From Marsupella aquatica (taxonomy: Eukaryota; Plantae; Marchantiophyta): a stretch of DNA of 64,000 bases. The notes under the pieces were generated by a model. The model searched no databases. It had not been told where the DNA came from and saw nothing but the letters and a program-made list of their open reading frames with translations. Below, piece by piece: positions 2,541 to 62,074 of the stretch. Position numbers and translations under genes: made by a program. Location of the stretch: positions 684,751-748,750 of the forward strand of contig OZ316898.1 in assembly GCA_973895155.1 (NCBI GenBank). Direction: 5' to 3'. Each line of letters begins with the position of its first letter. The first letter of the stretch is position 1.

Positions 2541-2554
2541 TTGAAGCATTGTTA

Positions 2555-31195: not shown

Positions 31196-31449
31196 GCCAT
31201 GATAAAAAATCATTGTAGAGGCTAGGGAGAAAAACCCCCCAAAAAAACTTTTTCATAACCTGTGAAGCAAATGGTCAAAAGATCATCATTCCTGACTTTG
31301 CAGCTTTGAGACGCCCATGCCATGATCACAAGTCATTGTAGAGGCTAGTGAGAAAACCCCCCCCCAAAAAAAAAACAAAACTTTTTCATAACTTGTGAAG
31401 CAAATGGTCAAAACATCATCATTCCTGACTTGGCAGCTTTGAGACGCCC
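31196..31449. repeat. Tandem duplication of about 125 bp upstream of the kinase gene
   Basis: gccatgat...tcattgtagaggctag.gagaaaaccccc...tgtgaagcaaatggtcaaaa.atcatcattcctgactt.gcagctttgagacgccc x2. Confidence 0.9.
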
Positions 31450-42800: not shown

Positions 42801-43079
42801 CACTTGCAAAGTGTACATAATATATACTAGAGGTGGTTAACTAAGACGTAAATTTGCAGATTCAAGACCTTTAACATCCATTATTCGTTGAATGCTATAC
42901 TTGAGATTTATGTTCTTTCAATTCATGATAGTGTCAACTTTCTATCGTTCAATACGAATCACAGAAATTGCAAGCATATACATTATGTCGATTTGAGTAT
43001 TTTTAGTTTTGTTACTGGAACAACATACAAAAGAGACAATTTCATTCGGCAATCTTCCCTTGTGACAGTCACATCTTAA

Positions 43080-44466
43080 CCACTTACATGACAAGCAAGC
43101 GAAGTGCCTTTCAAATCCACAGAGGAGAATCCGTAGAGCTGGCTTCATGTTTATGAAAGATGTTCTCACCAGAGCAGGGGAATTTCTATCTTGGGAAGAG
43201 GGGCCTGGTCAGTGTCTCCCCCGGAATTGTGAGGAGGCTTACAGGAAATTGATCGCCAACCTCAGAACTGTACCAGAGTTTGACGCTGGTAGATATCAGT
43301 TGGATTCCCTATTCTTAGAGGCTACTCTTCCTGACACTTGGTATGAGAATTCAAGGTGCAAATGAAACATATCACCTCAAATTGGCAGCTATTTCATGAT
43401 ACCTTGAAGCCATTGCACACTTTCAAGGTACTTAATGGCTACCTATTCTGATCAGATCACTCTGCTCCCCCTGCTGCTGATTTACTGCTACCTCGTGTGT
43501 TGATTCGGAAGCCGGATTCTAGCACTTCACTCAGACAGTGCATCAGCAACGGGACATGTGACTTTACTATTCTACTGCAATACCATTGGAGAGACGGTAC
43601 ACCATTCCTTGACATCTGCACAGGCCACCTACGGAAGCTACAGGGACAAGCACGTATTGGAATGCACAAGGCCTTGACTAAATGGGCTCGGATTCTGGAT
43701 TGGTACCCTAACCCCAAGGTCCTCTGGAGTAATACCTGGATGCCTTTCAGGGCAGCGACGGAAAATTGTTACTTATGGCAGCTCATCTACAGAATCCCTG
43801 CAACCCAACACTGCCAGAATCCCCAACTCCCAGTCTTTGATGAGACAACTTGGTGCACCCATTGTAATCTGCAGCAACAGAAAGACATCATGCATTGCAT
43901 TTGGAGCTGCCTGGTCTCACAACTCATCTGGAATTGGGCACAATACACTCTCACCTTGGCATCAACCACTGGTAAATAATTTGAATGTCAACTTGTAGCC
44001 AATCCACATTTTTGTAGCTAAACCTCTGCCTGATGAGTGGGGTGTACCAGATAAGTTATGGCATATCATGCGTGCCGTTGTTTGCTGGAATGTATGGAAA
44101 GACCAAAGCTCTCACTTTATTGAACACACTAGGTCCAATCCACATGCTCTCATACAAAAGGCTTGACACCGGCTTGGAGTTTACCTTTGCATGGACTGGG
44201 CCAAACAACAGGCAAAGGTGAGGGCAGGGAAGTCCACCATTGCAAAGGCCTACCATGCCATGTGTTTTGAGTATGGGACACACTCCGGTCTCTGGGAAGT
44301 ACATGGAGACATACTTCAGGTTCCCCAGTCCCACCCTGCCCGCCTTGAATTTGACTTGTTTCACAAGAATTGATTCTTCACTGCAGGTTAGACCAATAGA
44401 TAAGTAAACCTATCACGGACCCACTTAATGGAACCTTGCCAGAACCTGAGCATTTGCCAGTCTCAC
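43080..44466 (+). mobile_element. 5'-truncated, degenerate L1-like LINE (zf-RVT-like C-terminus of ORF2); its 3' tail probably resumes at 58642 after the Gypsy insertion
   Basis: LWSNTWMPFRAATENCYLWQLIYRIPAT...WCTHCNLQQQKDIMHCIWSCLVSQLIWNW matches the zf-RVT pattern (W..W...W.....P T...CxxC...H...C...W), followed by LWHIMRAVVCWNVWK. Stops and frameshifts are present. Confidence 0.75.
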
Positions 44467-47400
44467 TGTGGTGCGTCCCATGGCTCCCTAAACCCAAGAA
44501 ACCCCCCAGCTCAAGCCGATTCCCGCAGGTTTCGTGCTTGGCGAGGCCGTTTCCGCGGCTTAGCGGCATGGGACGCTGCTAACCTTCTACTACTACTATT
44601 AACATTTTACACACATATACTGGACAGATCCTTCATCGGGTCATGAGATACGTAGCCGGCCTAATATAGGCCTTCCCCTGTCTTCCCCTGTCTTCCCCTC
44701 CGTCTTGTTAGGTATGTTTGGATTCCGCCGCCGGAATGATCCCCAATAGGCTTGGTTAAGCCGCTAAGACCTCTCTCAGCTCGACACATCCAACTCTCAC
44801 TCCCCTGCTTACTTTCCTTCCTTCTGTTGATGTGGGCACTCTTCACACAAGTTAATGCGACACACAAATAGCAAAATGACTCATTCTGACTGAGTCATAC
44901 CATGCACTTGCCATACAAACAGTACATCTCATACACAAGTTCTGCGAACTAAGCCGTGAGGCCAACTCTATTCAGCTCTTAGGCATGAGGAAACATGAAT
45001 ATACACAAGGGTCACTGTATGACTAACCGAGAGCTTCTCGTACTACTTGATCCCAGCCCGGCTGGTGCAAACTAAAAACTTGCTAAAGAAGAGGCCCTGA
45101 GCTCCCCGCTGCCCAGGTACTTATCCTGGTAGTGGATCCGCCATTCTTTGCATCGTAAGCCTAATCTACCTGATAGTAATCTACTTGCCCGAATCTACCT
45201 ATGTACAGCAAGGCAGGAGCACAAGTGTTGCTCCTACCAGTGGAACCGCAATCCCACTAAGCTAAGTGTCAGGGCCGCTCCTGGTTCTGATCCTAATCCT
45301 AAACGTGGAGATCCGCGCCCGCCCTGCCCACTCACGCCTCCTCCCTCCACGTCCGCCCTCCCTAAAAGGAACGGCACCCTTGCACCGTCACGACACCGGT
45401 GGTGGATCCTCAATGGACGCCCCCAACACTTCCTCCTTAGCCACTGCCGTTGGCCCGCCTACTGACAAATTACCTGCCCTTGACCGAGTCAACTCTCCAT
45501 CGGCCTGACTGGGTCCACCTTCGGCTTCAGCCTCGACACCGGCCTCGGCAATACCCACGGCTTCGGCCTCAGCCACTCCAACGGCTTCGGCTTCAGCCAC
45601 TCCCACGGCTTCGGCCTCCCCTTCCCCTAGGGTAGTTGGATCCTTAGCCGTGACCCTGTCTGGGGTCGGTGCTGGGTCTACCTCCTTGATCACCACGGCC
45701 TGTGAAGTCGTATTACTCCTTGACCCTGAAGGTTTCCGCTTCTTCTTCGTTGGTGGCTCGGCAGCTGGTCCCTTCCCCTTCCCACTTACTTCCGGCACTG
45801 GTGCAGTTGACGCGGCTTGTCCTTCGGCAATTACCACCCCTGGTAACTGGTTTGTCCCAACGGGAGATGGACCTGCTGCAGCTAAGCATTTAAATAATGC
45901 GGCTTGTTTCTTCAGCCGCTCTGTTTGGTTGTCGGCCCGCCGCTGTAGGTTCTCCATCTTCCTCGTGATTTCCTCCAACTCCTCTTGGGTTTCATCCAGG
46001 TCCTTACGTGCCCCCTCCAGCTCGTTTTTGGCCTCCTCCTGCTCCCTGTGGGCTTCCTCCAATTCCTTCTTCAAGGTAGCCCTCTCCTCCTGGGTTGCTC
46101 TTAGCTCCTTGTCGAGCTCTGCAATGATGACAGACTCCATCTGGTTCATCTTGGCGTAAGTCTGTTCGAGCATCTCGTCCTTCTCCCTTAGGTCGGCCTT
46201 GAAGCTGGCCGTCAGGGACGCAAGCTCCTGCTGCAGCGCCATAATCCCTTGATAGGATTTCCCTAACTCGACCTCCTTCTGCTCAAGGGCTCCGCGGATT
46301 TTCTCGAGCTCCCCTTTCAACGCCCATTCCTTTCTTTGGGTCTCTGCCATGGCCCGACTGTTGGCTGTTATGTGGGCCTCCTCTGTATTCTTCAGCTCTT
46401 GCTTCCACTTCTCCCTCTCTTTGATCGTGTCGACCAACTCTTCCTGCGTCTGAGTCAGTTTATCCTTGATATTCTGATTATCAGCCTGCGCGGTGTCCAA
46501 CTGCCCCTGCATGATGTTCAGCTCATGTCGTTTAATCCGCAGTTCATCTTGGGCTTTCTTGGCCGCCCTTAGATCTTCAATCTTGGCTTCCATCCTCCTA
46601 AGCCGCCGAATGACCTCGTCCTTCTTGCTTCTCTCTAAAGCCACCGCTTCTTCTAATTGGTGCTTCTCCAACTGCTCCCTATGGAAAAAGGGTCCTATCT
46701 CCAACTCCTCTCCAAAGATGCCGAGCGCAAGTTCCCCACACATCTCACCATACTCCATGGCTCTATTCTTAGCGTAGGTGGAGTAAGTAGAAGTGATCGG
46801 CATCGCCCATCGTGGCCTCTGCTCCCAAGCCGTCCTGCGGATCTCTTCAATCGTGGCTAGAGGTTTGCTTCCTTTTTCGGCTAGCCGCCTGATGTCCTCC
46901 GGCCAATCTCCTCCTGGTAAATCCTTTTCCTTAGCCAGGGCGGCCTCTTCCTCCTACTTGATTCGCTCCTGAAATTCCTGCACCGTCTGTTTTATGCCGT
47001 CGAAGCTCGGGGGAGCAACATCTGGTGGGGGAGACTCAGGGCTACTCTGCTGGTTGGGGTCCCCTCGCACTACCCTTGGAAGTGTGGGGACAAACCGGCC
47101 ACAGGTCCTTACTCCTGGAACGTGATGGTCCGACCCATAGCCGGAATTATCATGGCTGCAGTCCTCCACTGCCTCCTCTACCTCTTGGACGTCCGGCTTC
47201 TCCCTCTCCTCTTCGTCGGTAGGAGCTTCAGGCAATTCTGCCTCAGATTCGGAGCTTGAGGTTCCCACGTACATTCGAACACCTGGCTTGGATTCCGGCC
47301 TGATTCTCTCCTTGTTTCCAGCAAAGGGGTTTTCTCTTGTGAGCAGGTGTAGGCCTACCTCTGTAGTAGTGTCCTGCATTGTTGCCGTTGCCGTTGTTGT

Positions 47401-48279
47401 TGCCGATGCCGATTTCTTTTCTTTCTCCAGTAGTTTCAGCAGACTCTGCATGCCTGGTTGCTGCATCGGCAAGTCCTCCTTCCTGGGCCTAAACACCTGC
47501 TCGATCGTAGGACTAACAGGTGGTTGAGGCTTCTCAGCCAACGGCCTCGGCGTTGGAGCTTCCTCGGGTGCCCTTACCTGCAGGGGAAGTACCGGGGCAA
47601 AAGTCTGACCTCTGGCATACCGGCACAACAGCGGCATGTGATAGCCAAGCCGCGACACGCTCCCCATGCCGATTACCTGCTGCTCCTCCTTTAAGATCTT
47701 CTTCAATTGGTTGAGGAGGTACCCGTTGTAGTCCCGGCTTGGGTCTGGCCTTTCTGCCAGATAGACCTGTGCCTTGCCGATCTCTGCCCTCGGCAAGTTA
47801 CAATGCATGGTCACCCGCAAGAAGTCGATCATCTCTCCTATGTGCGGGTTGGTGCAGGTGTTCCGGAAGAAGACATTCTTCGTTGATGGCCCGGGGAACG
47901 ACCGGAACTCCTTGTCAGGCAAGGTCTTCCTGGTATCAACTTTGGTCTTATTGCCTATCGGCAGGCCAAACACTTCGGCAATTACCTTGGGAGTAAGATA
48001 GAAATCCTTCCCATATATCCTCGTGCAATTGGTCTCGGGTTCCCATGACCCCACGAATTCTAATAGGTCTGACTCCGGTACCTCCGGCTTCAGCCATGGT
48101 AATCTTACAAAGGCCTCCAAGCCGGATCCGGCCATGAAGCCTTGGTACTTCTTGGTCTGCATGGCCGTAAAGCATGCATCCTCCTCCCATGCAAAATGTA
48201 GTTGCACCTCCACCGGTAGGGTTGCCGCCCAGCCCTTTCAGGTGTCATCCCTGGTTGGAATGGCCTTGATGGGATCGAC
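44467..48279 (-). repeat. 3' LTR, missing its first ~847 bp because of an internal deletion
   Basis: Near-identical to 53980-57789 (about 16 substitutions and one 3-bp indel counted by eye). Identity stops abruptly at gggatcgac|aatttatc, where integrase sequence begins. Confidence 0.9.
45388..48279 (-). pseudogene. Second, disabled copy of the LTR-encoded ORF in the 3' LTR
   Basis: Same sequence as 54901..57789, but the N-terminus is deleted and a CAG>TAG nonsense change at 46954-46956 splits it into ORFs 46954..48213 and 45388..46803. Confidence 0.9.
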
Positions 48280-50986
48280 AATTTATCATCCCAATCGAGT
48301 TTGTTCTGAGCTACTGTCTTGTTCAATATCTTTCCTATGATTCCGTTTGCTCGTTCTGTCAACCGTTTGCCTTTGGATGGTAGGGAGTAGTAGGCCTATG
48401 TTTAACTAAATACTGCTCATTTAAACGACTAATTATATCATTCAAAAAATGGGTTCCTCTGTCACTAACTAATTCTAGGGGTGCTCCATACCTGGTGAAG
48501 ATCTGCTCATACATGAATCTAGCCGTAGTAATTGCATCATCCTTCGTTGTTGGTCTGGCCTCTACCCATTTAGTTGCATAATCCGTAGCCAGGATTATGT
48601 ACTTGTTCCGTCGAGGGTGGGTCAGTGGTTTCAGAGGTCCAATGTAATCAATACCCCACTTCTCGAATGGTGCCAGAGGTAGAATAGGGTGCAGTGGATG
48701 CCTGGTGGACGCCCTTGGTCCTCCCGCTCGTTGACAAGGATCGCATTGTTTGATAAACTGATAGACATCTTTGTGCAAGGTGGGCCACCAGTAACCGGCA
48801 TTTAATATCTTCTTAGACGTGGTTACTGGGGCAAAATGTCCTCCGGCCTCCTCTCCATGCATGGCCCGTAGGACTCGTTTTACCTCTCTCTTTTCCAAAC
48901 ATCTTTGAATCATGCCGTTGATTCCATGCTTGTGCAGTATGCCTTTAATGCACTGATACTGTCTGACCTTCCACACAAAGACTGCGGCTTGCTCTCGGCT
49001 TAATCCTGACTGTAATCTGGAAGTGCTGAGAAATTGTAAAATCTCAGGGTACCATGTACCAGCTATTTCCACAACGAATAGCTCCTCGTCGGGGAATCGA
49101 TCATCGATGCAATCCGTGGCAGGTTTACCTGTGATCCTTGAAAAGAAGTCGGCATTGGCATGTAACTTTCCCGGCTTGATCCTCAGCTCATAGTCAAACT
49201 CCTGTAATAGCAAAATCCATCTTGCTACTCTGCCTGTAAGGTCCGGCTTATTGACTAGGTACTTCAAACTTTCATGATCAGTATGAAAGATTACCTTGTA
49301 CCCTAGTAAATAATGCCTAAACTTTTTACAAGAATAAATGACTCCTAATGCTTCTCTTTCCGTGGTAGAGTAGTTCCGTTCGGCATCGGCAAGCTGACGG
49401 CTTGCGAAGTATATGGGATGGTCCCTTCCTTTCTCATCCAACTGACTTAGTACTGAGCCAATACAGAAGCCCGAGACATCTACAAAAACATGAAAATCTT
49501 TGTTCCAGTCCGGTGCTATCATGACTGGGGCCTCTACTAACATCTGCTTCAATTCTACCACCGCTGTGACTCGTTCGGGTGTGGGTTCGAAGTCTGCTCC
49601 TGCCTTGAGCATATTGGTTAATGGTAAAGCCAGCTTGGAAAAATCCTTGATGAACCGGCGATAGTAACCAATGCATCCCAAGAAGGATCTTACATCCTTT
49701 ATGTTCTTAGGTTGCATGATATCTAGCCATACTGCTAGCTTACCTTTGTCAATCTCAATGCCCTTCCTTGATACCTTGTGGCCTAGTAGCACCCCCTCGG
49801 TTACTGCAAAAAAACATTTATCTGGGTGTAACTTGAGACCCACCTCTCTACATCTCATGAAGGTTTTCCTGAGGTATTTAGCATGTTTCGATGCCTTCCC
49901 GAATACTGCAAAGTCATCAATGAAGATTTCCATGAACTTTCTCAAGTAATCATGAAAAATGTTCACCATTAATCGTTGGAACATAGCTGGTGCGTTGCAG
50001 AGTCCAAACGGCATACGATTGAAGACATAGATCCCCCATTCCGTGATGAAGGCCGTCTTGATTTGGTCTTCCTGCCGAATCCTGATTTGGTTATAACCAG
50101 AGTATCCATCCATGAATGAATATAGTTCATGACTGGCTACCATGTCTAGTACCATATCAGTAAACGGTAAAGGAAAATGGTCTTTTAATGTTGCTTCATT
50201 CAGCTTCCTGTAATCCTGACAAACCCGGATCTTGGGTTTACCATCGGGTCCAGCTTTCTTGGGAACTATCACAATTGGAGACACCCAGTCTGAATGCAGG
50301 ACTGGAGTGATGAATCCAGCTTCCACTAGTTTGTCGATTTCTGTTTTGACCAGCAGGGAATACTTCGGGTTCATCCTTCGAATTGGTTGTCGAAATGATT
50401 TGGCTCCTAACATGAAATCAATTCGATGTTCCCCTAGTGTTGGATCTACTCCCTTTAGATCTTGGTGACTCCATGCAAACACATCCTGAAATTCAATCAA
50501 TAAGTCACTGATCTCTTTCTCGAGCTCAGGTGCTAGGTTTCTCCCTAAGTTCAGTTCTCTTCCCTCTCCTAAGTCGAGCTTCCGATATTGCCGTGCTTGG
50601 ATCATATTAATCTGCTTCTTCAAATTCGGGTCCAGTTCGGCTTCCAGTCTCTCTAATCTCATACCTCCATAAACTGGGATCTCGGCTGGACTAGCCGAGT
50701 CGGTCCCTTCCTTGGTGTCCATAGATTGTCCCCTTACCGGTCTATTCGGTTTTGAATTAGTGGTCGGCTCCCCTTCCTGCCTTGGCTCTAGATCGTGTCT
50801 GTCCATCTCATCCACTTCTTGCTCCTGAGAGTTAGGCCGCTGTGCTCTCTCGGCTTCTAATAGGGCCTCAATTTGTTCTGCCCTCGTAATCGGCTTGTAT
50901 GCCGATCCCTTGGTATTTAATTCCTTGCCGATGATCGATGGCGTTGTGGACCCCGTCGGCTCTGCCACAACGCCTGCAGAAAATCC
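48280..50986 (-). CDS. pol: Pol (RT - RNase H - integrase), in the -1 frame relative to gag-PR; integrase frameshifted near 48360 and truncated at 48280
   Basis: RT: WVSPIVIVPKK, RVCQDYRKLN, MDGYSGYNQI, MPFGLCNAPA, FIDDF. RH: DVSG, ERNYSTTEREAL, TDH. IN: H..H..CDPC, GIDYIG, SDRGTHF, then PYHPKANG / LTERANG in different frames. Confidence 0.93.
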
Positions 50987-53910
50987 ACTGTCCCTGCTAC
51001 TGCTCCCCACTTAGCCGTTTCATCCAATTGGTCTACATCCTTTACTTCCTCCGGAATTGCAGCTAAAAAGGTGGATTCTATTGTAAAGCAGTCCTCGACC
51101 TCTTCGTCTTCTTCTTCCAAGTCACCTTCCATTGGTTCTTGCCATAATCCGCTGGGGGGTACCTCTGGTCCAAAGACACCTTCTTCGGTTAGGTTAGTGA
51201 GGCATTCTAACCAACGTACTTCATCGGCTGACTCCAGTCCACTGTCGTACCCATCTACTTCCCTTATGCTTTTCCTACGGTCATCCTTAGTGTCCCAGGA
51301 TACCGTGATAGAGGGGGTCCCGAAAGTGAACTGCTTTTTACCCCAATCTTCTATTACCTCGGCTAGGTATAGCCATGGCCTACCAATCAATAGCCGGAAT
51401 GACGTAGGATTTACCGGCTTCATTACTACATAGTTAATGCTAAAGAAGATACCTCCTATCTCTGTCTTGATGCCGGTTAACACTCCCGTCGGAATGACCT
51501 GATATCCATTGGCCATGTTCAACACTCTTCCAGTCATCTCCGGTGTTAGACCCCACCCTTTTGTTGTTGAATCAATCATAATACATACCCCTGATCCTCC
51601 ATCGATGGGTACCCGTAGTAATAATTCTCCTTGAATCATTAATGGTAATGCTGGGGCTCCTTGATCTTCTTCTATCATTAGTACGTCGGATCTGGTTGCT
51701 ACCTTGGGTAATCTTGGCTTGCCGAGAATAGCCTTCCTTAATTGCTTCCGGAAGTACGGGCTATTTTTCAATAGTTGACCTACTGTTGCCGAGACTCTAG
51801 ATTCTAGTACATCTTTAGCCAGGTCATAGGGAATAATCGGCTTCTCTTCTGGTGGTGTTTCCGTCTTGGATTCGGCCAGTTTTGCCACGCTAGTCTCCAC
51901 AACTGTTGGGTCTTCCGAAGCAAACAATGCTTTTGCTCGTTTTACATCCTTGGCAATGGCTTCGGTATTCTCCAGGGTTTCTAATTCTCTTAGTTGTTCC
52001 TTAACACTAGCCGTAACAGAGGGGTAGAACAACTTAGGATGATCTCGATTGAAGTCGCTATCTTGTGAAGGATTGGTTTCACTGGTGGGCTCATGGCTTA
52101 CCTGTATTGCCGGAGCCCTCCCTTCTCCTTCTGTTGATGTTGACGAAGAGTCGATCCTTTCCTCCGTAACCTTCCCTTTATTTTTGGCCAGCCCATCCCA
52201 CCTTTCCTTCCTTCTGGTAGATCGAGTAGAGACCCGGTAGCAATCATGATCTAAATCCTCCTCTGAGAAGGTTGATAGGGCTTCGGCCTCATCATCAGAT
52301 GGTACGAACTCTGCCTCGGCATCCTCTTGCCATCCTAGTTCGATGTGGTTGATTTGAACTCCTCCGGGGGTAGTACCTGGCGGTAAGATCTTGATCGGCA
52401 AAAGCTTATGATTTGCGGCCAGGCCTGCCAACCAAGTAGGACATTGCCCTAGCATATGACCTTCCTGTCGGCATCCCATACATAGCTGAGCTGGTTGTCC
52501 ATCACCCTGTTTGCGTGCATTCGGGCATTCTCTAGCAAAATGGCCAGGTTGACCACAATTATAGCACGCCGCAAATCTTTGCACATTCGGCCTAGGAGGT
52601 ACTGACGGGTTCTGAATAATCCGAGGATACATCTCTCCTGGATTGTTCCTTAACCCTGACCACAGAGATGCAGGTCTGTTGGATAGGTCTCGTGCTCCAG
52701 TCTCACTGATGCCGAAAACACTATCAACGGCATCTCCCAAAAAGTACTCTACTTCTCCCTGACATGGTCTGATCTCGGCCACATGCCGAACATGATTAGT
52801 ATTAAGCTTAGGACACGCATCTTTATGGTGTCCGGTTTTATAACATAAGGCACACCATACAGAGCTATCCTCCTGTACTACCTTCTTCTTTGGTTTTACC
52901 TCTGCAATGATAGCCTTAAGTTGCTCGGTAAGGGCTACGATGTTATCTGGTGGCTTAGCCTCCATCTTGACTTTCGTCTTCCCTCTCCTTCTGCCCTTCC
53001 TTTTCCTAGTTTTTTCTTCTTCAGAACTAGAAGATGACTCACTCTTGCTACTTCCACTATCCGAGCTTGACTTATCACTTCTAGACTTCTTGGAATGTTT
53101 CTTCTTCTTATCTTTTTTCTTATGGGGTGATCCCTCCTCTGATGAGGAACTCTCAGACTTAAGCTGTTTCTTCCGGCTTGTGATATCTGCATTAATGTAT
53201 AATTGAATATCCTTAATTGCTTCGGCTAAAGTCTCCGGGTTCTCCTTCCTAATTGCAAAACTCATCTTCTGTGGCAAAGCATTCACCAACCATTGAAGTT
53301 GCATACCTTCAGATGCATTGGTCTTTGTACGTCTTACCAGTTTCTGAAAGCGTTGCAAGAACTTCCTGAAGGATTTGTTCTCCTTGAACCGAAGTTGTCC
53401 CAACTTTAGCACTGCTAGTTCTGAAGTTCCAATGGGTCGAAACTCCTTAACAAAGAGTGTTTTGAAGATATCCCAGATGGCTTGATCTTCCACATCTAAT
53501 GCTCTGTACCAAGGCCTAGCCTCACCCTTGAACAGGCCGGGAAGAATCTGCATCTTGATGGCCGATTCTCCATTTGCTGCAGCGGTTCCCTCGAAATCAT
53601 CCAACCATTCGTCCGGATCCTCATCTCCTCTCCCATGAAATGCCTTGTAATGTATGCGCGACCGCTGGCTCAATCTGGTCCCTGGCCTCTCGTCTGGCCG
53701 TGCCTCTGGTTCCCCCATGTCGGTTGGAGACTCACTTCTCCTTACCGACTCTTCTTCTGGTATGTCTTCTTCGACGCCACTCCCAGTTTTGGAGCTACCA
53801 GCTCTTTCTGCCCCTCTCAGTCGTTGTGTATCATGCCACCCGGCGAGCTGCTGCAGTCGAGCTCTCTCCCGTTGAATCACTCTTTCTTCCCTCGGCGTAA
53901 GGTCAGTCAT
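50917..53910 (-). CDS. gag: Gag-protease polyprotein (997 aa): retrotransposon capsid, three CCHC zinc knuckles, aspartic protease
   Basis: FHGRGDEDPDEWL...FKGEARPWY capsid signature. Knuckles CALCYKTGHHKDAC, CYNCGQPGHFAREC and CMGCRQEGHMLGQC. Protease VPIDGGSG...LLIGRPWL. Confidence 0.93.
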   Translation of the reverse strand: MTDLTPREERVIQRERARLQQLAGWHDTQRLRGAERAGSSKTGSGVEEDIPEEESVRRSESPTDMGEPEARPDERPGTRLSQRSRIHYKAFHGRGDEDPDEWLDDFEGTAAANGESAIKMQILPGLFKGEARPWYRALDVEDQAIWDIFKTLFVKEFRPIGTSELAVLKLGQLRFKENKSFRKFLQRFQKLVRRTKTNASEGMQLQWLVNALPQKMSFAIRKENPETLAEAIKDIQLYINADITSRKKQLKSESSSSEEGSPHKKKDKKKKHSKKSRSDKSSSDSGSSKSESSSSSEEEKTRKRKGRRRGKTKVKMEAKPPDNIVALTEQLKAIIAEVKPKKKVVQEDSSVWCALCYKTGHHKDACPKLNTNHVRHVAEIRPCQGEVEYFLGDAVDSVFGISETGARDLSNRPASLWSGLRNNPGEMYPRIIQNPSVPPRPNVQRFAACYNCGQPGHFARECPNARKQGDGQPAQLCMGCRQEGHMLGQCPTWLAGLAANHKLLPIKILPPGTTPGGVQINHIELGWQEDAEAEFVPSDDEAEALSTFSEEDLDHDCYRVSTRSTRRKERWDGLAKNKGKVTEERIDSSSTSTEGEGRAPAIQVSHEPTSETNPSQDSDFNRDHPKLFYPSVTASVKEQLRELETLENTEAIAKDVKRAKALFASEDPTVVETSVAKLAESKTETPPEEKPIIPYDLAKDVLESRVSATVGQLLKNSPYFRKQLRKAILGKPRLPKVATRSDVLMIEEDQGAPALPLMIQGELLLRVPIDGGSGVCIMIDSTTKGWGLTPEMTGRVLNMANGYQVIPTGVLTGIKTEIGGIFFSINYVVMKPVNPTSFRLLIGRPWLYLAEVIEDWGKKQFTFGTPSITVSWDTKDDRRKSIREVDGYDSGLESADEVRWLECLTNLTEEGVFGPEVPPSGLWQEPMEGDLEEEDEEVEDCFTIESTFLAAIPEEVKDVDQLDETAKWGAVAGTVDFLQALWQSRRGPQRHRSSARN
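50927..50986 (-). promoter_or_regulatory. Candidate -1 programmed ribosomal frameshift signal
   Basis: G_GAT_TTT (50986-50980) is in the gag frame, followed by a 5-nt spacer and a perfect 10-bp stem GGCGTTGTGG/CCACAACGCC. Loop GCCGA can pair with downstream TCGGC. A -1 slip gives the pol frame (SGFSAG). Confidence 0.8.
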
Positions 53911-53957
53911 TACCTACGCTTCCGTTCTAACTTCATATCTCACGGCTTAAGAAATGC

Positions 53958-53975
53958 CCCCTCCATCTAGCGCCA
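53958..53975 (-). promoter_or_regulatory. Primer binding site, probably tRNA-Asn(GUU)
   Basis: Minus strand TGGCGCTAGATGGAGGGG, 4 nt inside the 5' LTR. It is complementary (1 mismatch) to the plant cytosolic tRNA-Asn 3' end CCCCTCCTTCTAGCG-CCA as I recall it. Confidence 0.8.
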
Positions 53976-54301
53976 AAAATGTGGTGCGTCCCATGGCTCC
54001 CTAAACCCAAGAAACCCCCTAGCTCAAGCCGATTCCCGCAGGTTTCGTGCTTGGCGAGGCCGTTTCCGCGGCTTAGCGGCATGGGACGCTGCTAACCTTC
54101 TACTACTACTATTAACATTTTACACACATATACTGGACAGATCCTTCATCGGGTCATGAGATACGTAGCCGGCCTAATATAGGCCTTCCCCTGTCTTCCC
54201 CTGTCTTCCCCTCCGTCTTGTTAGGTATGTTTGGATTCCGCCGCCGGAATGATCCCCAATAGGCTTGGTTAAGCCGCTAAGACCTCTCTCAGCTCGACAC
54301 A

Positions 54302-54318
54302 TCCAACTCTCACTCCCC
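54302..54318 (-). other. PPT-like purine tract followed by TGTGTCG inside the LTR (copy at 44789..44805)
   Basis: Minus strand GGGGAGTGAGAGTTGGA|TGTGTCG..., 322 bp before the LTR 3' end. Confidence 0.5.
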
Positions 54319-54900
54319 TGCTTACTTTCCTTCCTTCTGTTGATGTGGGCACTCTTCACACAAGTTAATGCGACACACAAATAGCAAAATGACTCATTCT
54401 GACTGAGTCATACCATGCACTTGCCATACAAACAGTACATCTCATACACAAGTTCTGCGAACTAAGCCGTGAGGCCAACTCTATTCAGCTCTTAGGCATG
54501 AGGAAACATGAATATACACAAGGGTCACTGTATGACTAACCGAGAGCTTCTCGTACTACTTGATCCCAGCCCGGCTGGTGCAAACTAAAAACTTGCTAAA
54601 GAAGAGGCCCTGAGCTCCCCGCTGCCCAGGTACTTATCCTGGTAGTGGATCTGCCATTCTTTGCATCGTAAGCCTAATCTACCTGACAGTAATCTACTTG
54701 CCCGAATCTACCTATGTACAGCAAGGCAGGAGCACAAGTGTTGCTCCTACCAGTGGAACCGCAATCCCACTAAGCTAAGTGTCAGGGCCGCTCCTGGTTC
54801 TGATCCTAATCCTAAACGTGGAGATCCGCGCCCGCCCTGCCCACTCACGCCTCCTCCCTCCACGTCCGCCCTCCCTAAAAGGAACGGCGCCCTTGCACCG

Positions 54901-57900
54901 TCACGACACCGGTGGTGGATCCTCAATGGACGCCCCCAACACTTCCTCCTCAGCCACTGCCGTTGGCCCGCCTACTGACAGATTACCTGCCCTTGACCGA
55001 GTCAACTCTCCATCGGCCTGACTGGGTCCACCTTCGGCTTCAGCCTCGACACCGGCCTCGGCAATACCCACGGCTTCGGCCTCAGCCACTCCAACGGCTT
55101 CGGCTTCAGCCACTCCCACGGCTTCGGCCTCCCCTTCCCCTAGGGTAGTTGGATCCTTAGCCGTGACCCTGTCTGGGGTCGGTGCTGGGTCTACCTCCTT
55201 GATCACCACGGCCTGTGAAGTCGTATTACTCCTTGACCCTGAAGGTTTCCGCTTCTTCTTCGTTGGTGGCTCGGCAGCTGGTCCCTTCCCCTTCCCACTT
55301 ACTTCCGGCACTGGTGCAGTTGACGCGGCTTGTCCTTCGGCAATTACCACCCCTGGTAACTGGTTTGTCCCAACGGGAGATGGACCTGCTGCAGCTAAGC
55401 ATTTAAATAATGCGGCTTGTTTCTTCAGCCGCTCTGTTTGGTTGTCGGCCCGCCGCTGTAGGTTCTCCATCTTCCTCGTGATTTCCTCCAACTCCTCTTG
55501 GGTTTCATCCAGGTCCTTACGTGCCCCCTCCAGCTCGTTTTTGGCCTCCTCCTGCTCCCTGTGGGCTTCCTCCAATTCCTTCTTCAAGGTAGCCCTCTCC
55601 TCCTGGGTTGCTCTTAGCTCCTTGTCGAGCTCTGCAATGATGACAGACTCCATCTGGTTCATCTTGGCGTAAGTCTGTTCGAGCATCTCGTCCTTCTCCC
55701 TTAGGTCGGCCTTGAAGCTGGCCGTCAGGGACGCAAGCTCCTGCTGCAGCGCCATAATCCCTTGATAGGATTTCCCTAACTCGACCTCCTTCTGCTCAAG
55801 GGCTCCGCGGATTTTCTCGAGCTCCCCTTTCAACGCCCATTCCTTTCTTTGGGTCTCCGCCATGGCCCGACTGTTGGCTGTTATGTGGGCCTCCTCTGTA
55901 TTCTTCAGCTCTTGCTTCCACTTCTCCCTCTCTTTGATCGTGTCGGCCAACTCTTCCTGCGTCTGAGTCAGTTTATCCTTGATATTCTGATTATCAGCCT
56001 GCGCGGTGTCCAACTGCCCCTGCATGATGTTCAGCTCATGTCGTTTAATCCGCAATTCATCTTGGGCTTTCTTGGCCGCCCTTATATCTTCAATCTCGGC
56101 TTCCATCCTCCTAAGCCGCCAAATGACCTCGTCCTTCTTGCTTCTCTCTAAAGCCACCGCTTCTTCTAATTGGTGCTTCTCCAACTGCTCCCTATGGAAA
56201 AAGGGTCCTATCTCCAACTCCTCTCCAAAGATGCCGAGCGCAAGTTCCCCACACATCTCACCATACTCCATGGCTCTATTCTTAGCGTAGGTGGAGTAAG
56301 TAGAAGTGATCGGCATCGCCCATCGTGGCCTCTGCTCCCAAGCCGTCCTGCGGATCTCTTCAATCGTGGCTAGAGGTTTGCTTCCTTTTTCGGCTAGCCG
56401 CCTGATGTCCTCCGGCCAATCTCCTCCTGGTAAATCCTTTTCCTTAGCCAGGGCGGCCTCTTCCTCCTGCTTGATTCGCTCCTGAAATTCCTGCACCGTC
56501 TGTTTTATGCCGTCGAAGCTCGGGGGAGCAACATCTGGTGGGGGAGACTCAGGGCTACTCTGCTGGTTGGGGTCCCCTCGCACTACCCTTGGAAGTGTGG
56601 GGACAAACCGGCCACAGGTCCTTACTCCTGGAACGTGATGGTCCGACCCATAGCCGGAATTATCATGGCTGCAGTCCTCCACTGCCTCCTCTACCTCTTG
56701 GTCCGGCTTCTCCCTCTCCTCTTCGTCGGTAGGAGCTTCAGGCAATTCTGCCTCAGATTCGGAGCTTGAGGTTCCCACGTACATTCGAACACCTGGCTTG
56801 GATTCCGGCCTGATTCTCTCCTTGTTTCCAGCAAAGGGGTTTTCTCTTGTGAGCAGGTGTAGGCCTACCTCTGTAGTAGTGTCCTGCATTGTTGCCGTTG
56901 CCGTTGTTGTTGCCGATGCCGATTTCTTTTCTTTCTCCAGTAGTTTCAGCAGACTCTGCATGCCTGGTTGCTGCATCGGCAAGTCCTCCTTCCTGGGCCT
57001 AAACACCTGCTCGATCGTAGGACTAACAGGTGGTTGAGGCTTCTCAGCCAACGGCCTCGGCGTTAGAGCTTCCTCGGGTGCCCTTACCTGCAGGGGAAGT
57101 ACCGGGGCAAAAGTCTGACCTCTGGCATACCGGCACAACAGCGGCATGTGATAGCCAAGCCGCGACACGCTCCCCATGCCGATTACCTGCTGCTCCTCCT
57201 TTAAGATCTTCTTCAATTGGTTGAGGAGGTACCCGTTGTAGTCCCGGCTTGGGTCTGGCCTTTCTGCCAGATAGACCTGTGCCTTGCCGATCTCTGCCCT
57301 CGGCAAGTTACAATGCATGGTCACCCGCAAGAAGTCGATCATCTCTCCTATGTGCGGGTTGGTGCAGGTGTTCCGGAAGAAGACATTCTTCGTTGATGGC
57401 CCGGGGAACGACCGGAACTCCTTGTCAGGCAAGGTCTTCCTGGTATCAACTTTGGTCTTATTGCCTATCGGCAGGCCAAACACTTCGGCAATTACCTTGG
57501 GAGTAAGATAGAAATCCTTCCCATATATCCTCGTGCAATTGGTCTCGGGTTCCCATGACCCCACGAATTCTAATAGGTCTGACTCCGGTACCTCCGGCTT
57601 CAGCCATGGTAATCTTACAAAGGCCTCCAAGCCGGATCCGGCCATGAAGCCTTGGTACTTCTTGGTCTGCATGGCCGTAAAGCATGCATCCTCCTCCCGT
57701 GCAAAATGTAGTTGCACCTCCACCGGTAGGGTTGCCGCCCAGCCCTTCCAGGTGTCATCCCTGGTTGGAATGGCCTTGATGGGATCGACCTCCTCCTCTT
57801 TGGCTTCTCCTTGCTTCCTGCTCTGCTGCTCGGCTGGCTTCTTTGGTGCCGCCGACCTCGTTCTTTTTGCCGGGGTGGCTTCATCGTTGATGGCTCCCTT

Positions 57901-58560
57901 CCTCTTCATCTCTGCTGCCGTGGAGGTTTCTCCTAGCACCGTTGCCTGGGCCCACCTTTCCGTGCTACCCTTTAATTCCCAGTGTATGTCGTTGTAGTTC
58001 TTGATGGCCTCTCGGATGCCGACGACGCTGTCTTTGCAAAACAGAAGATCGTCGAGTTGATTGGAAGTAGGCGTCCACAGGAACTCGTCCTTGATGAGTT
58101 CGCCTCCTAAGAAAGCCGTCTTCTGCAGCTCCCACAATCGAGCGAGCTCCTGCCGTTCTCGAGCTGCCCTTTCTGACTCCTCGTCCTCGTAAGTCTTGAT
58201 GTACTCAGTTGCCCGTTCGAACAGGCATCCCCAGAAATGTGCCGCTTGATTGACGTTGCTCATACCCTCCTTAGGTCGATCGTCGGTATCTACTCTCTCC
58301 CCGAGTGCTTGCCTAAGCAGCTGACAGTAGTTGGCCTCCCGTAGTCGTCTGCCTAGTTTGTGCTCGCAAATGAGCCACCATCTCCTGCAAGCGCTCCTTA
58401 CCCCTCTCCTTTGCCGGTCCTTCTTCCCGTTGATCCTTCCTAGCCGCCGACGCTTAACGCGCCCTAACCCTAATCGGGTTTTCACCCTTAGCCTTACCTC
58501 CGGCCTCGGCCCGGGTTCCATGGTTGCCCCTAATTGTTTATATTTTCCTTGTTTTGTCAC
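54901..58560 (-). CDS. LTR-encoded extra ORF, 1219 codons (first ATG at 58521): basic N-terminus, PMD/plant-transposon-protein-like motif, long coiled coil
   Basis: Uninterrupted 3660-nt ORF fully inside the 5' LTR. Contains FVRLPW...LLEFVGSW...IYGKDFYLTPKVIAEVFGLPIG, an E/K/L-rich heptad region, NLS-like PPTKKKRK and EAEAVG[VI]A repeats. Confidence 0.85.
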   Translation of the reverse strand: MTKQGKYKQLGATMEPGPRPEVRLRVKTRLGLGRVKRRRLGRINGKKDRQRRGVRSACRRWWLICEHKLGRRLREANYCQLLRQALGERVDTDDRPKEGMSNVNQAAHFWGCLFERATEYIKTYEDEESERAARERQELARLWELQKTAFLGGELIKDEFLWTPTSNQLDDLLFCKDSVVGIREAIKNYNDIHWELKGSTERWAQATVLGETSTAAEMKRKGAINDEATPAKRTRSAAPKKPAEQQSRKQGEAKEEEVDPIKAIPTRDDTWKGWAATLPVEVQLHFAREEDACFTAMQTKKYQGFMAGSGLEAFVRLPWLKPEVPESDLLEFVGSWEPETNCTRIYGKDFYLTPKVIAEVFGLPIGNKTKVDTRKTLPDKEFRSFPGPSTKNVFFRNTCTNPHIGEMIDFLRVTMHCNLPRAEIGKAQVYLAERPDPSRDYNGYLLNQLKKILKEEQQVIGMGSVSRLGYHMPLLCRYARGQTFAPVLPLQVRAPEEALTPRPLAEKPQPPVSPTIEQVFRPRKEDLPMQQPGMQSLLKLLEKEKKSASATTTATATMQDTTTEVGLHLLTRENPFAGNKERIRPESKPGVRMYVGTSSSESEAELPEAPTDEEEREKPDQEVEEAVEDCSHDNSGYGSDHHVPGVRTCGRFVPTLPRVVRGDPNQQSSPESPPPDVAPPSFDGIKQTVQEFQERIKQEEEAALAKEKDLPGGDWPEDIRRLAEKGSKPLATIEEIRRTAWEQRPRWAMPITSTYSTYAKNRAMEYGEMCGELALGIFGEELEIGPFFHREQLEKHQLEEAVALERSKKDEVIWRLRRMEAEIEDIRAAKKAQDELRIKRHELNIMQGQLDTAQADNQNIKDKLTQTQEELADTIKEREKWKQELKNTEEAHITANSRAMAETQRKEWALKGELEKIRGALEQKEVELGKSYQGIMALQQELASLTASFKADLREKDEMLEQTYAKMNQMESVIIAELDKELRATQEERATLKKELEEAHREQEEAKNELEGARKDLDETQEELEEITRKMENLQRRADNQTERLKKQAALFKCLAAAGPSPVGTNQLPGVVIAEGQAASTAPVPEVSGKGKGPAAEPPTKKKRKPSGSRSNTTSQAVVIKEVDPAPTPDRVTAKDPTTLGEGEAEAVGVAEAEAVGVAEAEAVGIAEAGVEAEAEGGPSQADGELTRSRAGNLSVGGPTAVAEEEVLGASIEDPPPVS

Positions 58561-60674
58561 TATACTAAGGTGTTCCTAGGGTGCCTTCCTGCTTTACCCA
58601 CTTAACCGGCCGAGTGATTCCTGTCTAGGCATCACACTCACGGAGTGTGCATCTCCTGCTACAGTAGTTAAATTACTTATTTGGCTGCTTCCCTCTCGGG
58701 AGGCTTAGTTTCTTTCCTGGTACCGGCCGCACCAGTTTGTTTTTGCACTTCTGACCTCTGGTCCACCTTTGGCGTTGCCTTTGTGGCCGCCTCTTTGTAT
58801 GGTGTCTTTGTGAATGGAATTCAAAAATATCTTTCAAGGCAAAAAAATTAACCCAAATTTAAATTGTCTTCATGTATATCACCAATAGCCAATCAAATCT
58901 TAACTAAATGCATATGCAGATAGTCAAAAGTCACCCATTTCTTACACTAACTGAATCCATATCATCAATTCCATGTGAGTAATTCATTTGTCCATAATGG
59001 CACTGTCAATGTCATCTTGTAGAGATTCATCCAAGGGTAGTTGCACATAACCCTGTCGCCACGTCTTCCCTACTGTTGTTATCATCATCTTTTGTATTTT
59101 TACCACTATTGTGCCTAACATCTATATCATGCTGATCACCAACACTTTTACCATTTTCAATACAGGCAGAATTATTGAAATCAACATTATTATTGATACC
59201 ACACTCATTTCCATCAAGTGTTCCAACATGATGAACTTCTTGAACGGTAAGAACATTCACCTTTTTTGCATTTGTCTTTCAATCTATTCATTAAAAGTGA
59301 ATTATTATTCAATTTATGAGCATTTGGACAACATAAAGTGTACATTTGGCTTTCAAAAAGTGTACAATTGGACAAAAAGTAAATATGTTGGCCATCAGAT
59401 GTACCACCATGTTCATCCTTTGTAAATGAATTAGGATGAGACTCCTTCTAGTAAAGAACATTTTTGCACCCTCAATTTTACAATTGACTATTTAGGTGTA
59501 GAGTTTGTACTATAGTGTACCTTTTGGAGTTAAAAAGTATACATTTAGAGGCCTAAAAGTGAACAAAATAAAATACACTTTTAATGAATAGGGTGATAGT
59601 CTTCTTCTTTCTCTCCATTGTGTACAACACCTTGAGTTGGTTATGTTCTGCTTCTCTCTTACATTTTAACGGTCTAGATTCTAATTCCTCAAAGATACAC
59701 CTATACAAAGTAATATATATGTCCCTCAAAACAACATTGAGTAGCATATCAACATGTTTCGATGGTCAATCCGCATGTTTAACTCCATGGGTTGAACAGT
59801 CATGCCAATACTCTTCCTGATATGTAATGCTCTAATCATTGGACACTACATCGACCAAATTTCTCATCACTGAGGATGTCTTCAAACACGATGCTCATGA
59901 TAAATCCTTTTCAATTTCAACATCAGATCCTATTTCCAATACGTTCCAATATGCTTCAGACATACCTTCTTCTCACACTCTCTCATTTCTATAAATCTAA
60001 CAAGATATCTCTTTTGTCTGTTGAATTTTTTGGTGCCCATCTGGAGGGATTCAAGTGATTCCATGTACACTAGGATAACTCTCGTGGGCAACTTGCCTAA
60101 ATCTTGCAAGCTCTCAATGATATGCTCAGTGTTTTGAAAACTCTGCTCAGGTCGATATACATTGTATTGGTCAATTCCATTGTTCTCCAACTCTTCATGC
60201 GCAAGCTGAGTATTAAAGGTCAACTCCAGCTGAGGTTGCTGACCGATGATCCCAGTTGATTCCACAAGACTATTCTTGATTGTGAACATCTTCTTCCTTT
60301 AGATGGCATGAGATCACCCTATTCATTAAAACTGGAATTTCTCTAGTCCAGAAGTTGACCTTCAAATTTCTTATTTTACCCCCAAAAGTTCTATAACTTG
60401 TTCCCCAAAAGCATACAATTTAGTGGCCAAATATACACTTTTTGAGGTCTAAAATTACAATTCTAATGCCCAAATTATTAATTAAATAATTCAATTATCA
60501 ATTATTAATACTTATTAATTAAAAGACAATAAAGTGTTCTTATTATATACAATATAAACAATGAAAAAATAGAATAAGACAATATAATAAATTCAAATGA
60601 CCCGTGATAACCAAGTTACACAAACACGGAAGGTAAACCGGTGATGTATTATAAAAGTAAAAAACCTATTTTTA

Positions 60675-61032
60675 CAGGGTCGAGACCACGTCTGCCCCAA
60701 TGCAGGCTCTAGATGGTTTTGACCGGTTACAAGTTGAATGTATATCAATTACTATGTAAAAATTTATGTCGAGATTATCTCGACCCAAATGTAGGGTCCA
60801 CATAATTTTGACCCCTTGTTGAATCTATATCTCTAGCTATTCCCTTTGTATAGGGTCGAGACCCAAATAACCTTTTTCTGAGAACATATCTACAAGTAAA
60901 AGAGGATCAACAACATCTAGACTCAAATGGATAGTACGCATAGCTTCACTCTTTTTTCGAGTAAGAATATGTATATCTACAACTCACATCGTAACTGTTC
61001 AGTGTAGGGTCGAGATGATCTAGACCCAAATC
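60675..61032. repeat. Cluster of degenerate palindromic GGGTCGAGAT/ATCTCGACCC motifs
   Basis: agggtcgagac (~60676), gtcgagattatctcgacccaaatgtagggtc (~60768), tagggtcgagacccaaat (~60851), tgtagggtcgagatgatctagacccaaat (~61003). Confidence 0.6.
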
Positions 61033-62074
61033 TCATGCTCCACCCCGCATAATTCATTTGAGCAAGTAAATCTAAACCCTGACGGGTCATATTTCATATC
61101 GCGATTGCAGAAATTGAGAGGCTTTCTATTCCAGAACTTTGTGGTGAGGTCCCTACACCTCAGGACTTTTGAAACAAATCCCTGATGATTGTCTCTGTAG
61201 GGTCCTGTGTACTGATATCCAATTAATGTCTTTGCAAGGTCGTTGATCGCCTCCTCCGTCAATTCCTCCATTGGTGGTAATTGTTGCACTTCATTCTTGA
61301 CATCCCAAGGAATTTCGTCCGCTGTGACATCCAAGATTGTATGGATAACCGAATGAACCCATACCATACTACCCCATCGCTCCGTCAACAATGCATAAAT
61401 GGCAGCCTGTTGATCTCTGTCCGCTAAAACATTTATCATAGACCACTTTGGATGATTGATAAAAAGGTAGTGCTGAAGATTGAAGGCATGATACAATTTC
61501 CTGAGCAGAGGCCACAGTATTTCTGGAAAGAATGTATCATCCGTGGAGTGATGCGAAAATGAGGAAGGAAACAACCCACAATTCTCTGGATTTGCAAATG
61601 CCTTCATTGGAGTGTCATCAAGAAGGAGTGTATAAGTTTTGTCGTATAATCCACCATAACGTTTCCAAACAACCCTCAAATCCTTCAAATGAATATTTGC
61701 CTTCCCATCGGTAATGTCAGGCCTCTGGATTCCAGTATCAAATGTATCTTCTTATGTGAGAATAAACTTGAATTGCTCTCGCTCTTCTTGACTGAAGATC
61801 AAATGAATCATTTCATCCGTCCTGGGTTTCCTTGCACAAGTCCAAATGGCAACATCAAATAACGAAAAAGTTGCGATTAAGAACTTGTGAAGATGGGGTC
61901 ACTCAACATACATAAAGTTAAACCCTCCACGTCTCCCCCAGTGGACACCCTTGACACTTGTCGCACTACGGCGCGGTCCAGAACTTGGCGTTTTGACAGA
62001 ATCTCAACACATTTTGTTGAGGTCAAGAATCAATAGCTTCCGTCTGATCGGACCGTGAAGTGGAGGCAAGGGTC
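61020..62074 (-). pseudogene. FCP1-homology (NIF/HAD-family) phosphatase-like domain, disrupted
   Basis: RRKLLILDLNK (motif I, DLN variant), PHLHKFL...FDVAIWTCA, KDLRVVW, TLLLDDTPMKAFANP. Stops or frameshifts lie between 61690 and 62030. Acceptor ttctttgcag| precedes 62074. Confidence 0.75.

Follow-up and report, generated by a model that had tools for sequence, protein, structure and literature searches.

A 1,206-codon open reading frame inside the long terminal repeat of an Athila-like Ty3/Gypsy retrotransposon

Results

The 64,000-nt stretch of DNA analyzed here (the window, to which all coordinates refer) contains a 14.2-kb Ty3/Gypsy element with a large extra open reading frame (ORF) located inside the long terminal repeat (LTR), 78% of which is coding sequence. 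This is very probably the layout of the family as a whole. As a complete account of the locus we lean towards one in which the gene came to lie in the LTR by a shift of the polypurine tract (PPT) and in which its product is a predicted anti-silencing DNA-binding protein.

The element is on the minus strand and reads from 58636 to 44467. Its 5′ LTR (53980..58636, 4,657 bp, read from 58636 to 53980) starts with TGTGATGC and has TG..CA ends, and the inverted termini match in 7 of 8 letters. The target-site duplication (TSD) CTCAC lies at 58637..58641 on the 5′ side and, as read in the sequence, at 44462..44466 on the 3′ side; at any one position CTCAC would occur by chance with a probability of about 9e-4, and among the 22 window sites that match the terminus in at least 7 of 8 letters, 58636 is the only one it follows. 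An empty site was found in one of four runs (X2), in which two contigs join 44461 to 58637 with five letters shared. The listed X2 contig is about 13% diverged from the flanks of the element, so it represents a homologous empty site and not necessarily the allele. A 376-nt contig from run X6 matches the element up to position 58636 and no further; the final 106 nt of this contig do not follow the flank present here. The primer-binding site (PBS; 53958..53975, minus strand), a TGG run that we take to resemble the 3′ terminus of tRNA-Asn from plants, starts four nucleotides behind 53980; the preliminary description was right that a PBS is present, and placed it directly against the LTR. The same description had proposed that CTCAC is the TSD, that the TG..CA ends carry inverted termini and that 53980..58636 is a single LTR, and all of this is confirmed by the agreement of termini, TSD, PBS and empty site. 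An Rfam scan of 44000-58200 gave no match, and no tRNA genes were found in the 64-kb window.

Between the LTRs, gag, protease (PR), reverse transcriptase (RT), RNase H (RH) and then integrase (INT) follow in Ty3/Gypsy order. A gag-protease ORF of 997 aa (50917..53910, minus strand, ATG at 53910) includes a Retrotrans_gag domain and a CCHC knuckle, and pol (48280..50806, minus strand) encodes RT, RNase H and an integrase that is truncated at 48280 and carries a copy-specific frameshift near 48362. The native RNase H is intact (D-E-D-D present); for an additional RNase H there was neither a match nor room between PR and RT or between RH and INT, and the region after INT is deleted. The 3′ LTR (44467..48279, minus strand) is joined directly to the truncated integrase, the PPT region is also gone, and the first 847 bp of this LTR, corresponding to codons 1-244 of the ORF, are missing. 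We infer that the copy lost about 1.4 kb (the end of integrase, the PPT and these 847 bp), and did so after insertion, since the 5′ LTR retains the 847 bp. What remains is 99.5% identical to the 5′ LTR (44467-48279 versus 53980-57789; 16 substitutions and one 3-bp indel). The ORF was earlier said to be duplicated in the other LTR; a second copy is indeed there, incomplete because of this deletion and with nonsense codons at W258 and Q685. The element likely belongs to an Athila-like Ty3/Gypsy family of high copy number, probably one of liverworts, and is likely a recent copy.

The intact sense ORF (54901..58521, minus strand; 3,621 nt including the stop) lies wholly inside the LTR, as had been reported, and encodes 1,206 aa from a first ATG at 58521 in the strong context ACCATGG; the previously given length of 1,219 codons counts from a GTG. 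Across 1,224 codons the frame contains no internal stop, for which the probability by chance is about 6e-24, while the other five frames hold 24-62 stops. The protein consists of a basic N-terminus, a conserved region (approximately aa 90-190), a conserved domain (approximately aa 255-470; 57112..57759, minus strand), an acidic, proline-rich spacer, a proline-free coiled-coil-like stretch (approximately aa 780-1020), a basic KKKRK motif and a low-complexity tail. No transmembrane-like segment was found in it, the top 19-residue Kyte-Doolittle hydropathy being 1.11, in an Ala/Val/Glu repeat. The conserved domain is 24-48% identical to 14 database proteins, one of them from Calypogeia fissa. Seventeen of 18 phmmer matches to the ORF protein are credible and represent divergent homologs; the remaining match, P0132, is a bacterial repeat protein that we set aside as spurious. 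The 21 listed within-family variants of the ORF comprise 8 synonymous, 13 missense and no nonsense changes, with 23% synonymous expected over all changes, and give no clear sign of purifying selection. Word-index protein searches found nothing, locus scans with the ORF against metagenome, viral and prokaryote contigs yielded no relative, and the complete ORF had no match among 79 loci and 120 proteins by tblastn and blastp.

In the contigs of runs X1, X2 and X3 (X6 was left out as too shallow) the depth of the ORF is 3.4-4.5 times that of gag, compared with 3.4-5.1 times for the non-coding LTR end and 2.2-3.2 times for the first 453 bp of the LTR, where depth is a sum over contigs and not a copy number. 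ORF depth thus matches that of the rest of the LTR and not that of gag, which is what points to a family layout. The family-wide arrangement suggested in the preliminary description accordingly gains indirect support, from the depth ratios in three runs and from the X6 contig, whose match likewise stops at 58636. Since the ratios exceed 2, solo LTRs bearing the whole gene probably exist as well.

Distant relatives (pol 41-57% identical) carry an internal ORF in all five readable cases. Locus L001 reads pol, PPT-like tract, 743-aa sense ORF, PPT, LTR of about 1 kb and PBS, with the same PPT motif present both behind pol and behind the ORF, and a PPT behind the ORF is also found in L005, L009, L021 and L029. 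The L001 ORF is a weak homolog of the LTR-encoded ORF (hhalign 48%, E 1.8e-4). L005 was considered as a second case on account of its 6.19-kb repeat with a 1,267-codon ORF and was rejected, since a PPT and a PBS bound a 1.43-kb LTR behind that ORF. In the element studied here a look-alike of the L001 PPT motif (54860..54892, minus strand; an unscored, by-eye, side-by-side comparison) lies directly behind the ORF stop and is likely an old, disused PPT, and the non-coding 3′ part of the LTR (53980..54860, minus strand) is likely the ancestral LTR of about 0.9 kb. Taken together, the internal ORF of the relatives and the PPT look-alike behind the ORF make a shift of plus-strand priming the route that we favor for entry of the gene into U3, its presumed location. 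Priming would have left the PPT that follows an ancestral 3′ accessory ORF for a purine tract after pol; the doubled PPT motif of L001 could be raw material for such a shift. The RNA would be of the usual Athila kind, with a single accessory ORF on its 3′ side, and possibly made from a candidate genomic promoter at the TATA-like words at 54516 and 54181; reverse transcription would then write the accessory ORF into both LTRs, so that each complete copy would carry the gene twice.

Above gathering score, neither the ORF protein nor its 17 homologs matched Transposase_32, ATHILA ORF-1, PMD or DUF1985 in Pfam. Below threshold, the Atlas leads for the ORF protein were Transposase_32 (0.88) and ATHILA (0.87), and those for its Calypogeia homolog were PMD (0.86) and DUF1985 (0.85). 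A structure search of 48,161 chains placed the VANC21-DNA complex 9lnk at the top (Z 4.0, rmsd 4.9, 166 residues aligned), the sole entry with more than 92 aligned residues, although this Z is within 1 of unrelated EF-hand-type entries and under the typical chance best. The model has a pLDDT of 52 and a pTM of 0.36; a single-sequence fold (pLDDT 35) was unusable. Foldseek against PDB and BFVD returned nothing at E<=0.001 (top BFVD entry, E 0.018), and a second structure comparison (VIA) covered 39 chains, with 9lnk not among them. The score of the ORF against a profile of relatives was reached by one of 1,000 shuffles, and hhalign to Transposase_32-type relatives gave 10-18% only. A histone H2A match (PDB sequence search, E 0.035) was rejected, other PDB sequence searches being blank or at chance. 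A target-motif scan gave no significantly enriched candidate: CGGCTTA occurs four times, and in 41 of 300 shuffles some 7-mer attains that count. VANC and PMD have a common fold (PMC13547354; bioRxiv 2024.09.27.615353), and these weak, converging leads suggest, on balance, that the region of approximately aa 255-470 adopts a predicted DNA-binding fold of the Transposase_32/ATHILA/PMD/VANC type, combined with a coiled coil through which the protein would oligomerize. The protein likely belongs to the known Athila/PMD accessory class; a role as a nuclear DNA-binding protein that shields the element from silencing is our tentative prediction.

The RT/RH region is 71% identical to that of Calypogeia elements and forms one clade with them (SH-aLRT 100). 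In the RT tree, a quick tree built without labelled reference elements, a clade of 13 entries holds the element, Calypogeia, Riccia and L001 and stands apart from angiosperm and L005/L009 entries with Athila-type features; it may be a basal liverwort branch. The sense extra ORF that Athila elements carry in the internal region 3′ of pol lies here inside the LTR. The additional RNase H and degenerate native RH that define Tat/Ogre/Retand elements were not found; aRH-less Tat elements are represented by Z1/Z2 of Marchantia (PMC10508981). Phygy/Selgy elements are short and without an extra ORF (PMC6317226), unlike this element of 14.2 kb with its large extra ORF. The LTR-encoded protein has no transmembrane segment of the env-like kind.

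Discussion

We think it very unlikely that the family is an ordinary Athila-like one in which the 3′ ORF is internal and the LTR short (about 0.9 kb, or else 322 bp), this copy being a cDNA once misprimed at an upstream purine tract or a rearranged tandem. This layout is that of all five readable relatives, PPT-like tracts precede both 54860 and 54301, and the two LTR starts are not comparable because the upstream end of the 3′ copy is deleted. Against it, ORF depth stands at the LTR level and not at that of gag in all three runs computed, the contig from another run stops exactly at 58636, and the 58636 end matches the other terminus in 7 of 8 letters versus only 4 of 8 for 54301. The equality of ORF and LTR depth likewise makes improbable the case named in the preliminary description as fatal to its proposal, namely a one-off locus in a family with 322-bp LTRs and an internal ORF. 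The layout is known from one assembly, but an assembly artefact is exceedingly improbable given that the two LTR copies differ by 16 substitutions and one indel, that a TSD and an empty site exist, and that six runs from four studies contain 0.57-0.80 of the words of the stretch.

Placement of the ORF in R/U5, or behind its own promoter at the 5′ edge of the LTR, as a 5′ extra ORF of the Ogre/Retrosat2 type or a free-standing gene possibly starting at Met87, is unlikely in our judgment. In its favor, a TATAAA word lies 21 nt before the first ATG, the start of the LTR is followed by a telobox-like repeat and by GTAAG donor-like words, and the initial Met of homolog P0128 aligns close to Met87. 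A minus strong-stop of 4.5 kb would, however, be unusual on general knowledge, TATA-like words are also present about 200 bp before the LTR end, the first ATG stands in a strong context, and a promoter of its own inside U3 fits an LTR gene acquired by PPT shift too. Under the favored layout the protein might, as a less probable option, serve a different purpose, be it as a particle or RNA chaperone, in nuclear import, in the targeting of integration or in an env-like role. Athila-type 3′ ORFs have no assigned function in the literature (PMC7264820), and the long coiled coil, the basic stretches and the weakness of the fold leads are compatible with such jobs. Yet the lack of a transmembrane-like segment argues against env, and four leads agree in pointing to a DNA-binding fold family.

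The MMTV sag, HIV nef and foamy-virus bel ORFs overlap U3. They resemble the presumed layout of the gene described here in that coding sequence in U3 is duplicated by reverse transcription, and differ in belonging to animal retroviruses and in encoding far shorter, unrelated proteins. For plants we found no description of LTR-encoded ORFs in the literature, and the accessible part of a fission-yeast paper (PMC10085805) describes no LTR ORF. For extra ORFs just two classes are distinguished, 5′ and 3′ of the polyprotein, both within the internal region (PMC6317226, PMC11728184). With the Athila clade (non-chromovirus OTA Ty3/Gypsy; PMC6317226, PMC11728184) the element shares the gag-PR/RT-RH-INT order, the intact RNase H without an extra one, a tRNA PBS, a 5-bp TSD and an extra ORF in sense orientation whose domain is likely related and which has an NLS-like motif and a coiled coil. 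It departs from that clade in that the ORF, at 1,206 aa, is of greater length and sits within the LTR, downstream of where the LTR starts; whereas the 3′ extra ORFs of Athila correspond to ATHILA ORF-1 (PF03078) and Transposase_32 (PF20167), the one here matches no Pfam model. Ogre/Retrosat2-RIRE3 elements (PMC6317226; PMC3485330) similarly have LTRs of 3-5 kb and, in linear order, a large extra ORF upstream of gag, with a PMD domain in 57% of Ogre; in contrast to the ORF here, which precedes the PBS, theirs is upstream of gag-pol and analyzed apart from the LTR, and our element lacks their extra RNase H. VANC, which counters silencing for VANDAL transposons, and the PMD proteins MAIN/MAIL (PDB 9lnk; PMC13547354; bioRxiv 2024.09.27.615353; PMC5418596) may share the fold, the role of a transposon accessory gene and the coiled coil, but VANC is encoded by dicot DNA transposons and does not resemble the ORF in sequence.

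Since plant LTRs count as non-coding and pipelines for annotation seek extra ORFs in the internal region only, a layout with a gene in the LTR would be missed or mis-called. Relocation of the PPT offers a concrete route by which giant LTRs could arise, and relatives likely still show the ancestral arrangement. A more far-reaching proposal, which we regard as doubtful, is that the lineage brought a VANC-like, sequence-specific anti-silencing gene into the LTR by PPT shift and equipped it with a promoter at the edge of the LTR, so that LTRs and solo LTRs in their hundreds would each be an anti-silencing gene complete in itself. If true, solo-LTR formation, normally the means by which a host removes elements, would raise the number of copies of a factor that sustains the activity of the family, and PMD-type host genes could be domesticated from it directly. 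The role of Athila-type extra ORFs becomes testable in a tractable plant group, the specific prediction being a VANC/PMD-like anti-silencing factor that binds DNA and would be amplified by solo LTRs.

Boundaries of the element and its LTRs

The retrotransposon lies on the minus strand, running from 58636 to 44467 with CTCAC on both flanks. Its TG..CA termini match as inverted repeats at 7/8 bases, and sequence inspection places a minus-strand PBS-like run 4 nt behind 53980, followed by the gag start at 53910 (minus strand, from ORF reading). The flanks, termini and adjacent PBS-like run thus bear out the LTR at 53980..58636 proposed in the preliminary description. In a pairwise comparison of the two copies, 53980-57789 and 44467-48279 are 99.5% identical; the repeat ends at 57789 because the 3' copy is fused directly to an integrase truncated behind its DWDDKL motif. 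Since the 3' copy is truncated, the 5' LTR boundary rests on the TSD and the terminus. The chance of CTCAC at this boundary is p ~9e-4; the window has 22 terminus-like sites, and the word follows only one of them. The insertion is young, given a divergence of 0.42% between the LTR copies.

The LTR holding the ORF is real. The ORF runs on the minus strand from an ATG at 58521 to a stop at 54901 (1,206 aa; the frame spans 1,224 codons from one stop to the next), and a stop-free frame of this length has a chance probability of ~6e-24. An intact ORF of 1219 codons, duplicated in the other LTR, had been claimed: the frame is indeed intact but measures 1,206 aa from its ATG, and the second copy is only partial, lacking codons 1-244 and carrying two nonsense codons as well as a 3-bp insertion.

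Lineage of the element and its surroundings

Pfam matches comprise gag, zinc knuckle, RT, RNase H (retaining D-E-D-D) and integrase; an additional RNase H is absent both ahead of RT and ahead of integrase. Among named relatives, pol is most similar to that of Calypogeia fissa (62-65%), followed by Riccia sorocarpa (up to 56%) and Marchantia (48%), with 42-51% for angiosperm rows. A quick maximum-likelihood tree built from 39 RT/RH rows, without labelled reference elements, groups the element with Calypogeia (support 100) inside a 13-row clade with Riccia and L001, a locus from our pol-based scan. The element is likely Athila-like and probably from a liverwort.

Elsewhere in the window, 33831-39612 (+) holds multi-exon host gene pieces with a MASE1 domain and histidine-kinase/receiver-like text (a MASE1-type hybrid kinase), and 21181-22485 (+) a single ORF for a 434-aa DUF642 protein. 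ORFs of 195 and 379 aa (61020-61607 and 62642-63781, both minus) and of 396 aa with recurring W-D/E-S-x-F-L words (704-1894, minus) have no Pfam match. Several short repeats, tandem or direct and 43-133 bp long, lie in 8726-10327 and 30545-31449.

Independent sequencing runs

Among sixteen runs listed, six, from four studies, contain 57-80% of sampled words; contigs of four (X1, X2, X3 and X6) were compared over 43000-60500. Two X2 contigs connect 44461 with 58637, omitting 14,175 bases, with 5 letters common to both sides: this junction is an empty site carrying one CTCAC. One of these contigs differs from the window flanks at 14/105 and 18/131 letters, and it therefore represents a homologous site, perhaps a paralog. 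A 376-nt X6 contig matches as far as exactly 58636 and continues for 106 letters without a match to this flank.

Depth of the element exceeds that of the left flank several hundred- to about thousand-fold (X1, X2). Relative to gag, the combined depth of the two window copies (X1, X2 and X3 respectively; X6 was too shallow) was 3.4, 5.1 and 3.9 for the non-coding LTR end, 3.6, 4.1 and 3.4 for the duplicated ORF part, 4.5, 4.4 and 4.4 for 57790-58183 and 2.7, 3.2 and 2.2 for the first 453 bp of the LTR, against ~1 expected for an internal ORF; as summed contig depth is not copy number, these ratios support the layout and do not count copies. The LTR-borne ORF is likely the layout of the whole family, and ratios exceeding 2 point to solo LTRs or to derivatives with deletions.

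One X2 contig links 54834 back to 53980, which probably reflects an insertion nested within an LTR, though the position is near the proposed old LTR start. Adjoining the insertion, 58768-59935 is another repeat, with depth far over the single-copy flank in X1-X3; it contains an ORF (59051-59422, +) with a weak match to the ORF-domain profile (E 0.29).

Position of the extra ORF in relatives and a proposed route into the LTR

The pol-alignment scan yielded 79 loci, 17 of which were screened for ORFs and repeats and nine for a PPT behind the extra ORF. The closest, L001 (57%), reads pol, PPT-like tract, 743-aa sense ORF, the same tract again, TGTGATG.., a ~1-kb LTR and PBS; the motif lies at 3745-3770 and 6545-6574 of that locus, one each side of the extra ORF. 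Homology of its ORF to the window ORF is weak (hhalign 48%, E 1.8e-4; hmmsearch E 0.16). A G-tract and TG follow the extra ORF by 5-400 bp in L005, L009, L021 and L029 and at greater distance in L023 and L016. No extra ORF lies within an LTR among the loci checked for a PPT (L012 and L059 were unreadable). L005 has a 1,267-codon internal sense ORF (1037-4840) whose stop is ~35 bp ahead of the PPT and whose architecture resembles that of the window ORF (Transposase_32-like start, acidic repeats, coiled coil). A tract resembling that of L001, judged by eye, is present in the window directly behind the ORF stop, ~0.9 kb from the LTR end.

On the simplest reading of L001 and the others, an internal ORF would be the ancestral state, and plus-strand priming would have shifted to the tract behind pol, after which all sequence between both tracts would become U3. 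U3 in both LTRs is copied from the 3' end of the RNA; as the 5' LTR is intact, the deletion in the 3' copy would postdate insertion. It would have removed ~1.4 kb, estimated via the L001 integrase tail, from an element of ~15.6 kb. Upstream (central) PPTs start plus strands in plant elements, according to the available part of PMC7197481, and non-chromovirus LTRs of up to ~5 kb replicate, according to that of PMC6317226.

The ORF protein and its family

The protein has no Pfam match and no PDB sequence match. HMMER with aa 75-480 against 1.84 billion representatives gave 18 matches, 14 over aa 250-470 at 24-48% identity and three over aa 90-245; one was discarded as spurious, and another is a 744-aa Calypogeia protein. 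Conservation despite such low identity shows that the coding family is genuine. Of 21 ORF variants listed from within it, 8 are synonymous and 13 missense, with no nonsense change among them. The domain resembles Athila-type ORFs, its string EF-x-x-W..IYGK-x-F-x-LT..I-x-EVFGL aligning with L005, L009 and L029, but the scores are weak (1/1,000 shuffles; hhalign 10-18%). Atlas leads, each below 0.9, are Transposase_32 and ATHILA for the ORF; for its Calypogeia homolog they are PMD and DUF1985.

A structure model from 19 sequences (pLDDT 52) found VANC21-DNA (9lnk) as the best of 48,161 chains (rmsd 4.9), with a Z of 4.0 that alone is not significant; it aligns over 166 residues, versus at most 92 in every other row. 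In the portions available, PMC13547354 gives VANC and PMD a common fold and models coiled-coil pentamers for VANC and the Athila domain, bioRxiv 2024.09.27.615353 describes VANC as an anti-silencing factor binding DNA, and PMC5418596 has PMD-A encoded by Gypsy elements. These leads, together with a charged Pro-free stretch of 240 residues that is coiled-coil-like, basic motifs and no transmembrane segment in the protein, lead us to predict a nuclear, oligomeric DNA-binding accessory factor, whose role would most likely be anti-silencing.

Expression and standing of the LTR-borne ORF

The 5' edge of the LTR has a TATAAA word and what we take to be a telobox-like repeat and donor-like words; one homolog begins near Met87. 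CGGCTTA occurs four times in 53943-54469 (non-coding LTR end and 5' UTR) versus twice in the 44-kb left flank, which is not significant after shuffling. Athila makes a spliced subgenomic RNA, as the accessible text of PMC7197481 has it; an RNA of that style would here lead to the first ATG, which has a strong context.

No LTR-borne gene came to light for any plant retrotransposon in the parts covered of the literature, which also include PMC11963269, PMC10508981, PMC3485330, PMC10085805, PMC11728184 and PMC12885004; cases could be present in the element tables of PMC6317226 or of Steinbauerova 2011. As far as the accessible parts of PMC7264820 and PMC6317226 go, extra ORFs are placed solely in the internal region. 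The LTR-borne ORF is a new form of the Athila-type accessory-ORF arrangement. Judging from its sequence, it may have its own promoter at the LTR edge, and solo LTRs would then be self-sufficient genes.
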